DNA of 64,000 nucleotides from Escherichia coli. GTDB taxonomy: Bacteria; Pseudomonadota; Gammaproteobacteria; Enterobacterales; Enterobacteriaceae. The notes beneath the pieces were generated by a model. That model ran no database searches. It worked only from the letters and a program-made list of their open reading frames with translations, and was not told the origin of the DNA. The stretch lies in NCBI RefSeq assembly GCF_024502345.1, contig NZ_JALDNN010000001.1; one strand, 5' to 3'. Numbering within the stretch: the first letter of the stretch is position 1; each line of letters begins with the position of its first letter. This document shows, in pieces, positions 20,568 through 20,906 of the stretch. Position numbers and translations under genes: made by a program.

Positions 20568-20906
20568 CTAAAATAGCCGAGCAGCAAACGCCAAAACAAC
20601 AATACTGACATTACCATTAACTGTCGCGATAGTTCTGAGTCGGTCGTCTTTCAGGGTTTTACCGTCAAATGTTGCGATGGTGCGGAGTCGATCGTCTTTC
20701 AGGGTCTTTCCATCAAAGGTAGCGATGGTGCGGAGTCGGTCGTCTTTCAGGGTTTTACCGTCAAAAGTTGCGATGGTTCTGAGCCGGTCGTCTTTCAGGG
20801 TTTTACCGTCAAACGTTGCGATGGTCCTGAGTCGATCATCTTTCAAGGTCTTGCCATCAAAGGTCGCGATAGTCCTGAGTCGATCGTCTTTTATAGTTAC
20901 GCTCAT
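20568..20906 (-). CDS. small repeat protein: 6 x 16-aa repeats (KDDRLRTIATFDGKTL) + C-terminal hydrophobic tail
   Basis: ORF spanning the repeat array, preceded by aggaga RBS; ends ...VNGNVSIVVLAFAARLF. Both strands are open over the repeats; the minus frame is preferred because of the RBS and codon-level conservation. Confidence 0.5.
   Translation of the reverse strand: MSVTIKDDRLRTIATFDGKTLKDDRLRTIATFDGKTLKDDRLRTIATFDGKTLKDDRLRTIATFDGKTLKDDRLRTIATFDGKTLKDDRLRTIATVNGNVSIVVLAFAARLF
20621..20905. repeat. tandem array, 6 x 48 bp imperfect repeats
   Basis: Units gcgatggtgcggagtcgatcgtctttcagggtctttccatcaaaggta and variants read directly; variation is mostly at synonymous positions of the minus-strand frame. 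Confidence 0.85.

Follow-up and report, generated by a model that had tools for sequence, protein, structure and literature searches.

A 48-bp tandem array downstream of hsdR in Escherichia coli encodes a beta-flower protein with a predicted six-hairpin barrel

The window analyzed in this report is a 64,000-nucleotide stretch of Escherichia coli DNA (NCBI RefSeq assembly GCF_024502345.1, contig NZ_JALDNN010000001.1). On its minus strand, the ORF list and translation place a coding sequence at 20568..20906 (TAG stop codon included) for a protein of 112 amino acids, with a mass of 12.65 kDa and a pI of 10.06 as computed from the translation. RefSeq starts this gene at the ATG at 20906; an alternative in-frame ATG lies upstream at 20912 and would yield a product of 114 amino acids. 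The initial annotation, made from the letters alone, had placed an AGGAGA ribosome-binding site before the ATG, and this Shine-Dalgarno-like motif is indeed read from the sequence at 20913..20918 (minus strand, 20918-20913), 6 nt 5' of the ATG at 20906.

The gene contains six tandem 48-bp units (20604..20891, minus strand), defined by a unit table and by Tandem Repeats Finder (20611-20891, period 48, 5.9 copies, 84% matches). Units 1 to 3 occupy 20891-20844, 20843-20796 and 20795-20748, and units 4 to 6 occupy 20747-20700, 20699-20652 and 20651-20604. Each of units 1-5 encodes KDDRLRTIATFDGKTL, giving five perfect 16-residue copies; unit 6 has diverged and encodes KDDRLRTIATVNGNVS, that is, KDDRLRTIAT plus VNGNVS. 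The order in the protein is MSVTI, five copies of KDDRLRTIATFDGKTL, KDDRLRTIATVNGNVS, and then IVVLAFAARLF. The earlier description of six copies followed by VNGNVS is correct as to the six 48-bp units, but there are not six identical copies: five are followed by a diverged sixth, and VNGNVS had been counted twice. The hydrophobic C-terminal stretch comprises 13 residues and is too short to span a membrane. In the AlphaFold model, residues 100-111 (VSIVVLAFAARL; 20574..20609, minus strand) are predicted to form a helix after 12 strands. No signal peptide or lipobox was found in the protein of the window, and, because it lacks a signal peptide, it is presumably cytoplasmic.

The gene's position directly downstream of hsdR, claimed at the outset, was confirmed: the neighbor at 21128..24244 (minus strand) encodes a type I restriction subunit, HsdR, of 1038 amino acids (PADLOC REase_I, E = 0), and a spacer of 221 nt (20907..21127, minus strand) separates its stop codon from the beta-flower start. 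The module also comprises hsdS (24361-25569, minus strand; PADLOC Specificity_I, E = 9e-123) and hsdM (25566-27122, minus strand; PADLOC MTase_I, E = 5e-119). Next to hsdM, about 1 kb at 27197-28169 holds small ORFs only (75-111 aa); two related islands (L001 and L015) differ in sequence there and have a DUF262 (GmrSD-like) gene beside hsdM. A promoter and terminator scan of the spacer found no terminator-like site and no minus-strand promoter-like site scoring at least 9 of 12, and the region has as many promoter-like sites as chance would produce. The first terminator-like site downstream of the gene is a strong hairpin with a 10-bp stem and a T run at 20208..20231 (minus strand). Since no promoter was found, we infer that the gene is probably transcribed together with, or just after, hsdR. 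A promoter-like sequence on the plus strand, CTGACA-17-GATAGT (9 of 12; 20605-20633), reads into the gene from its 3' end, in antisense orientation. An Rfam search of 19900-21300 returned nothing real; its sroE match, at 17 bits, is below the gathering score of 51 and is a chance one.

The terminator-like hairpin lies just past a partial tRNA copy. Comparison with tRNA-Phe at 39806-39881 identifies a direct repeat of the 3' part of that gene at 20234..20290 (minus strand); it is 57 bp long, includes an exact tRNA-Phe copy of about 50 bp, and lies 278 nt beyond the beta-flower stop codon. The proposal of an island edge is thus borne out by a tRNA-Phe att repeat. By this comparison, a pheV island of about 19.6 kb has its distal att end at 20234-20290, and the beta-flower gene is the last gene there. 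A second P4-type integrase is encoded at 18782-20044, immediately outside the island, and two islands appear to have integrated in tandem at pheV.

The array is a real minus-strand protein-coding gene held by purifying selection. Among units 1-5, 12 of the 48 nucleotide columns vary, and all of this variation is synonymous, solely in the minus-strand frame; at least 17 substitutions are required to account for it, with zero amino-acid change. Any two units of the window allele differ at 4-10 of 48 nucleotides, all synonymously, and pairwise dS between units runs from 0.3 to above 1.8 with amino acids identical. About 25-30% of random single-base changes in the unit would be synonymous, and the probability of 17 out of 17 would be P <= 1.5e-9 if substitutions were random (neutral). 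In the remaining five frames, the same differences produce 11-47 summed amino-acid changes, or stop codons. Between alleles (seven five-unit alleles, namely that of the window and six from E. coli genomes), dS is as high as 0.24 versus a dN of 0.008-0.024. In comparisons with plasmid-borne relatives, homologous nucleotides are confined to the coding sequence and some 10 nt 5' of it that include the AGGAGA; for a relative at 54% protein identity, nucleotide similarity is not detectable. The formal unit-to-unit analysis, in which every one of the 12 variable columns proved synonymous, therefore sustains the earlier argument that selection acts on a protein and that the array is not a satellite.

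Two further ideas about the array were set aside. A plus-strand ORF at 20677..20922 (81 codons) was rejected, as its repeats differ in amino acids. A special mechanism for the identity of the units, such as protein-level conversion or selection for codon divergence, was considered and judged unnecessary, because 17 synonymous substitutions out of 17 have a chance of about 0.05-0.08 when calculated with the dN/dS seen between alleles (about 0.055).

The product is a member of the known beta-flower family and does not represent a new kind of gene. It matches Pfam PF21785 (Bflower_2) with 42.8 bits and E = 5.2e-11 (hmmscan; query residues 6-104 against positions 3-101 of the 112 in the model), the inclusion threshold for the families of the beta-flower authors being generally about 27 bits (PMC10584680). 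Further, RefSeq WP_023293487.1 is identical to the window protein and is already named “5-fold beta-flower protein” in E. coli. The initial annotation had not recognized the repeat as a known family; these matches assign it to one. NCBIfam yielded chance matches alone (sex-lethal and DpdF, E > 0.03), so the RefSeq name comes from a Pfam-type model. A look-up of exact-sequence clusters found none of three alleles. No family in PADLOC-DB v2 matches the beta-flower protein at E <= 0.001, and a plasmid relative obtained a chance-level match only. Several other database matches were discarded: that to SAKe6AE in the PDB (E = 1.4e-4) is a sum of weak repeat matches with no single significant stretch and does not reflect homology, that to the Sxl RRM (E about 0.15) was likewise rejected as homology, and the PHROGs matches are repeat artefacts with zero significant stretches.

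The beta-flower fold was described in 2023 (Durairaj et al., Nature 622:646; PMC10584680) as a shallow symmetric barrel built from short hairpins. Its members are mostly bacterial and have four-, five- or six-fold symmetry; the loops hold basic residues and Phe, many members enclose a C-terminal hydrophobic helix, some carry lipoprotein signals, and a [DNEQ]xxG motif at the hairpin tip is only semiconserved (PMC10584680). The protein of the window belongs with PF21785 by HMM match and, in its predicted structure, by the arrangement of the barrel around the helix. Like the family, it would form a shallow barrel from short beta-hairpin repeats with basic residues and Phe in the turns, and this barrel would enclose a C-terminal hydrophobic helix. 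It departs from the family in several respects. Five-fold symmetry would entail ten strands, whereas the 112-residue allele is modeled with 12, i.e., six hairpins instead of five; its repeats are identical in amino-acid sequence; a regular-expression search found no occurrence of [DNEQ]xxG in the window protein, the invariant turn being F-D-G-K; and it lacks the signal peptide or lipoprotein motif present in some members. As to the biological role of the window protein, the leading guess is a part in the conflicts of mobile elements with phages.

With a 20-sequence alignment of small homologues, AlphaFold returned a model with pLDDT 81.5 and pTM 0.61, from an alignment that is shallow and in which most homologues are one unit shorter than the window allele; the single-sequence model was poor (pLDDT 49) and unusable. 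The former has 12 strands of 3-5 residues, making six hairpins, in which SVTI or KTLK alternates with LRTIA, plus the helix at 100-111, which is modeled as buried within the barrel. An equivalent of this terminal helix was found in 19 of 19 aligned homologues, including those with signal peptides. The window allele thus looks six-fold in the model, despite the “five-fold” of the family name, and the 96-residue alleles (L002, L016) would have five hairpins. Foldseek retrieved many small uncharacterized AFDB proteins with TM-scores of 0.83-0.91. Among solved structures, At5g01750 and the Tubby C-terminal domain come closest in fold, and the best PDB matches are 12-stranded barrels.

A 12-stranded barrel around a central helix, predicted here, is common to the window protein and the Tubby-like clan CL0395 (Tubby C-terminal domain, scramblase, DUF567). 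Compared with that clan, the strand order of the beta-flower is circularly permuted (PMC10584680). Identity to the Tubby C-terminal domain, phospholipid scramblase and LURP-one (PDB 1I7E, 2Q4M/1ZXU) is about 9-10%, and the strands and loops of the window protein are much shorter. Closed-repeat proteins that arose by amplification include beta-propellers with near-identical blades, and SAKe proteins are designed examples. The beta-flower shares with such propellers a symmetric closed fold derived from the tandem amplification of one small unit, but its unit is a single 16-residue hairpin, far smaller than a propeller blade.

Relatives of the window gene form a series in the divergence of their units. 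Some have nucleotide-identical units (units 3, 4 and 5 of L005) or near-identical ones (L009, L016), the window allele has units that differ only synonymously, and the older relatives L017 and L029 have units that differ in amino acids. This progression from identical through synonymous-only to diverged is what repeated hairpin amplification would be expected to leave once the copies drift under purifying selection. Invariant across lineages are D at unit position 2, A-T-F-D-G-K at 9-14 and L at 16. Positions 3-6, by contrast with these, vary between lineages (DDRL, DDHL, DRDL, DRHS, DASL), with further variants in individual units of metagenome alleles (DRQS, DAGS, DASS, DATS); in young-array lineages, they are uniform within one protein. 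Variability between proteins together with uniformity within them points, at the level of sequence, to positions 3-6 as a candidate binding face.

Copy number is polymorphic and clearly favors the six-hairpin form; this is not phase variation. The gene is carried by 50 of 5426 complete E. coli genomes; the unit count is five in 48 of these 50, despite nucleotide divergence of up to 6.9%, and is four in ET220 and two in ES1. In the hsdR-linked lineage from metagenomes (34 loci), the product has 112 aa in 27 loci, 96 aa in two, 80 aa in three and 64 aa in one, and is truncated in one, some of these short arrays being possible products of collapse during short-read assembly. There are six units in a Mixta genome, and a one-unit remnant is found on a Klebsiella plasmid. 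Alleles with 1, 2, 3, 4, 5 and 6 units exist, then, and every size change is in frame; the existence of alleles with 1-4 and 6 units implies that persistence of the gene does not strictly depend on a fixed closed barrel. The places at which a single genome is hit more than once in searches are probably off-register repeat alignments and not additional copies.

Beyond the hsdR-linked loci, the relatives occur in varied company, and their flanks are not conserved between contexts. The relative at 54% protein identity lies at 3237-3575 of a 4148-bp plasmid (L017, NZ_CP039563), upstream of retron Se72 and on the same strand. This retron consists of an RT and a cold-shock effector (CSD), and its carrier plasmids are ColE1-like and 4.0-4.1 kb in size. 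Related retron plasmids (L010-L014, L039-L042, L048, L084, L086) carry relatives with 2, 3, 4 or 5 units; most measure about 4.05 kb instead of 4148 bp, a difference consistent with two 48-bp units having been lost. The 4.3-kb plasmids of Klebsiella and Serratia carry a related RT and cold-shock gene and retain no more of the beta-flower gene than a remnant of one unit. Another relative is located downstream of Bunzi BnzA/BnzB (PADLOC E about 1e-200), and 4.8-kb Klebsiella plasmids pair a relative with a pVip-like radical SAM gene (viperin-like; E = 1e-25). Three Rop/ColE1-like plasmid lineages (L064, L069, L087) show no PADLOC match nearby. The family is rare: a narrower alignment profile search of about 100,000 species representatives found only 7 loci, and 1.84 billion proteins yielded only 86 representatives at E <= 1e-3. 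In phages, tblastn gave a single weak Gordonia match, BFVD no fold match at E <= 0.001, and IMG/VR no relative. The beta-flower genes are cargo of mobile elements. On Klebsiella plasmids, those of 4.8 kb among them, an unnamed 137-residue protein precedes the beta-flower (L016 3182-3595, L019 6563-6883) and travels with it, also onto a 197-kb IncF plasmid; its resemblance to the MGMT DNA-binding domain is weak (Pfam PF01035, E = 0.024).

In every locus at which upstream DNA is present (E. coli, Enterobacter, Pseudocitrobacter and at least 30 metagenome contigs), the hsdR-linked beta-flower gene sits directly 3' of an HsdR that is 98-99% identical. At least three insertion sites are used in E. 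coli: beside yghD, beside cadC, and beside a TPR-repeat gene and an integrase. HsdS varies between loci (36-87% identity), in contrast to the nearly constant HsdR and beta-flower proteins. We conclude that the hsdR linkage reflects one horizontally spreading module and does not amount to a set of independent observations. The gene is, moreover, dispensable for the hsdMSR module. In E. coli TUM2820 (L015, 5587-7653), the same hsdR (98.9%) is followed by two other genes in place of the beta-flower gene; homology breaks off precisely with the hsdR stop codon and starts again at 20353, and the two slot genes (394 and 181 aa) have no NCBIfam, PADLOC or PHROG match. In other strains, a 5'-nucleotidase/HrgA pair is inserted straight after the beta-flower stop codon, and in strain 1916D18 the beta-flower gene is kept next to an IS1 that replaces hsdR. 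Such comparisons suggest that the segment 20354-21127, after the hsdR stop codon, behaves as a swappable slot.

Our preferred interpretation, which we hold to be quite probable, is that the gene encodes a small basic beta-flower protein, carried as mobile-element cargo, in which an amplified array forms a six-hairpin barrel around its own helix and that may act by multivalent binding. In this scheme, each 16-residue unit would give one beta-hairpin, and the N-terminal SVTI strand, five full units and a half unit would together make the six hairpins, or 12 short strands, that close as a shallow barrel around the C-terminal hydrophobic helix in the model. The array would have originated by amplification of a single hairpin unit, after which purifying selection would have left only synonymous differences between units. 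The gene is the last in an hsdM-hsdS-hsdR module that spreads horizontally and that sits, in the window, at the far end of the pheV island. One face of the barrel would present six invariant Phe-Asp-Gly-Lys turns, and the opposite face six copies of the lineage-variable charged loop (unit residues 3-6). Both faces could then bind multivalently, to an anionic surface (e.g., membrane lipid) and/or to a lineage-specific partner protein. From the sequence pattern and the analogy to Tubby, multivalent binding seems the most likely mode of action.

Other explanations of the locus were weighed against this one. A regular 48-bp tandem array that adjoins mobile-element junctions could in principle be a non-coding DNA repeat (a satellite, an iteron or a protein-binding array) with an incidental ORF. 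The probability of this is practically nil, and the reading is already refuted by the substitution pattern, with its 17 or more between-unit changes that are all synonymous in a single frame; it also conflicts with the protein relative that has no detectable nucleotide similarity at 54% identity, with the match to a Pfam protein family, and with a confident structure model. The initial annotation had favored a phase-variable surface or membrane protein, whose repeat number would switch by slippage. Alleles of one to six units do occur, and a lower unit count in the relative goes with a size difference of about 96 bp (two units) between retron plasmids. We nonetheless consider a phase- or size-variable surface protein extremely improbable. 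The locus shows neither the shifts of frame or promoter spacing nor the frequent variation between close strains by which phase-variable genes are recognized: a 48-bp unit keeps the frame and so cannot provide on/off switching, the copy number checked across strains is five in nearly all of the complete E. coli genomes that carry the gene, over their whole range of divergence, and differences at 4-10 of 48 nucleotides between units disfavor slippage. As for a surface or membrane location, the protein has no signal peptide or lipobox, and the 13-residue stretch is modeled inside the barrel.

That same stretch lies at the root of another possibility, namely that the product is a membrane-active toxin or a tail-anchored protein, which would insert its C-terminus in the inner membrane and serve as an effector of addiction or abortive infection. 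The C-terminus, VSIVVLAFAARLF, is hydrophobic, the protein is basic, and the gene resides on small plasmids and island edges; further, the central helix of the Tubby/scramblase clan has been discussed as a possible membrane helix. This explanation is highly doubtful to us, however, in that a 13-residue run is too short for a bilayer (the best 19-residue Kyte-Doolittle window is 1.58), AlphaFold puts the helix inside the barrel, all 19 aligned homologues have its equivalent even where a signal peptide is present, and the variable flanks hold no conserved antitoxin partner. It is also possible, if rather unlikely, that the protein is a working accessory of the neighboring defence system or a companion of varied anti-phage systems; it could, for example, modulate, localize or delay HsdR (restriction alleviation in a new host) or sense phage infection. 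The constant placement on the same strand directly 3' of one conserved hsdR, across sites and genera, is in keeping with this, as are the lack of a visible terminator between the two genes and the proximity of relatives to retron Se72 RT and CSD, Bunzi BnzA/BnzB and the pVip-like radical SAM gene. Yet the hsdR-linked loci count as one spreading module, TUM2820 has the same hsdR without the gene, 1916D18 has the gene with IS1 where hsdR was, three plasmid lineages have no PADLOC match nearby, PADLOC holds no model for the protein, and defence genes are in any event frequent in what islands and small plasmids carry, which makes proximity weak evidence.

A defence-related role of the protein is plausible. 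One version of such a role, unlikely and put forward tentatively, is that the beta-flowers of the enterobacterial clade are a so far unrecognized accessory factor of mobile-element immunity, regulating or working with the defence system that travels with them, be it type I restriction-modification, retron Se72, Bunzi or a viperin-like enzyme. The barrel would then be a multivalent adaptor or sensor, possibly docked at the membrane, whose lineage-specific loops recognize a phage or host partner. If true, this would be the first function for a “dark” fold. In E. coli, Klebsiella and Salmonella, the clade gives tractable access to the function of the fold, given the tight linkage of the gene to a type I restriction-modification module and the other defence systems that its relatives adjoin. 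As Pfam and RefSeq already annotate the family, interest lies in the function of the fold, in its defence neighborhoods and in the natural copy-number series. This natural series of one to six units of a single 16-residue hairpin makes a clean system for studying the origin of closed symmetric folds.

Two relatives from metagenomes extend the range of settings. A distant five-hairpin relative of 94 amino acids (P0047; ENA metagenome contigs L033-L036) lies between a methyltransferase/SDR/deacetylase cluster and an 816-residue P-loop ATPase that is followed by an integrase fragment, a setting like that of an island edge. The 2681-nt JGI contig Ga0105005_1061707 (L009) has a period of 1540 nt, with identical 64-residue ORFs at 539 and 2079, and may represent a tiny circular element with a beta-flower gene of two units.
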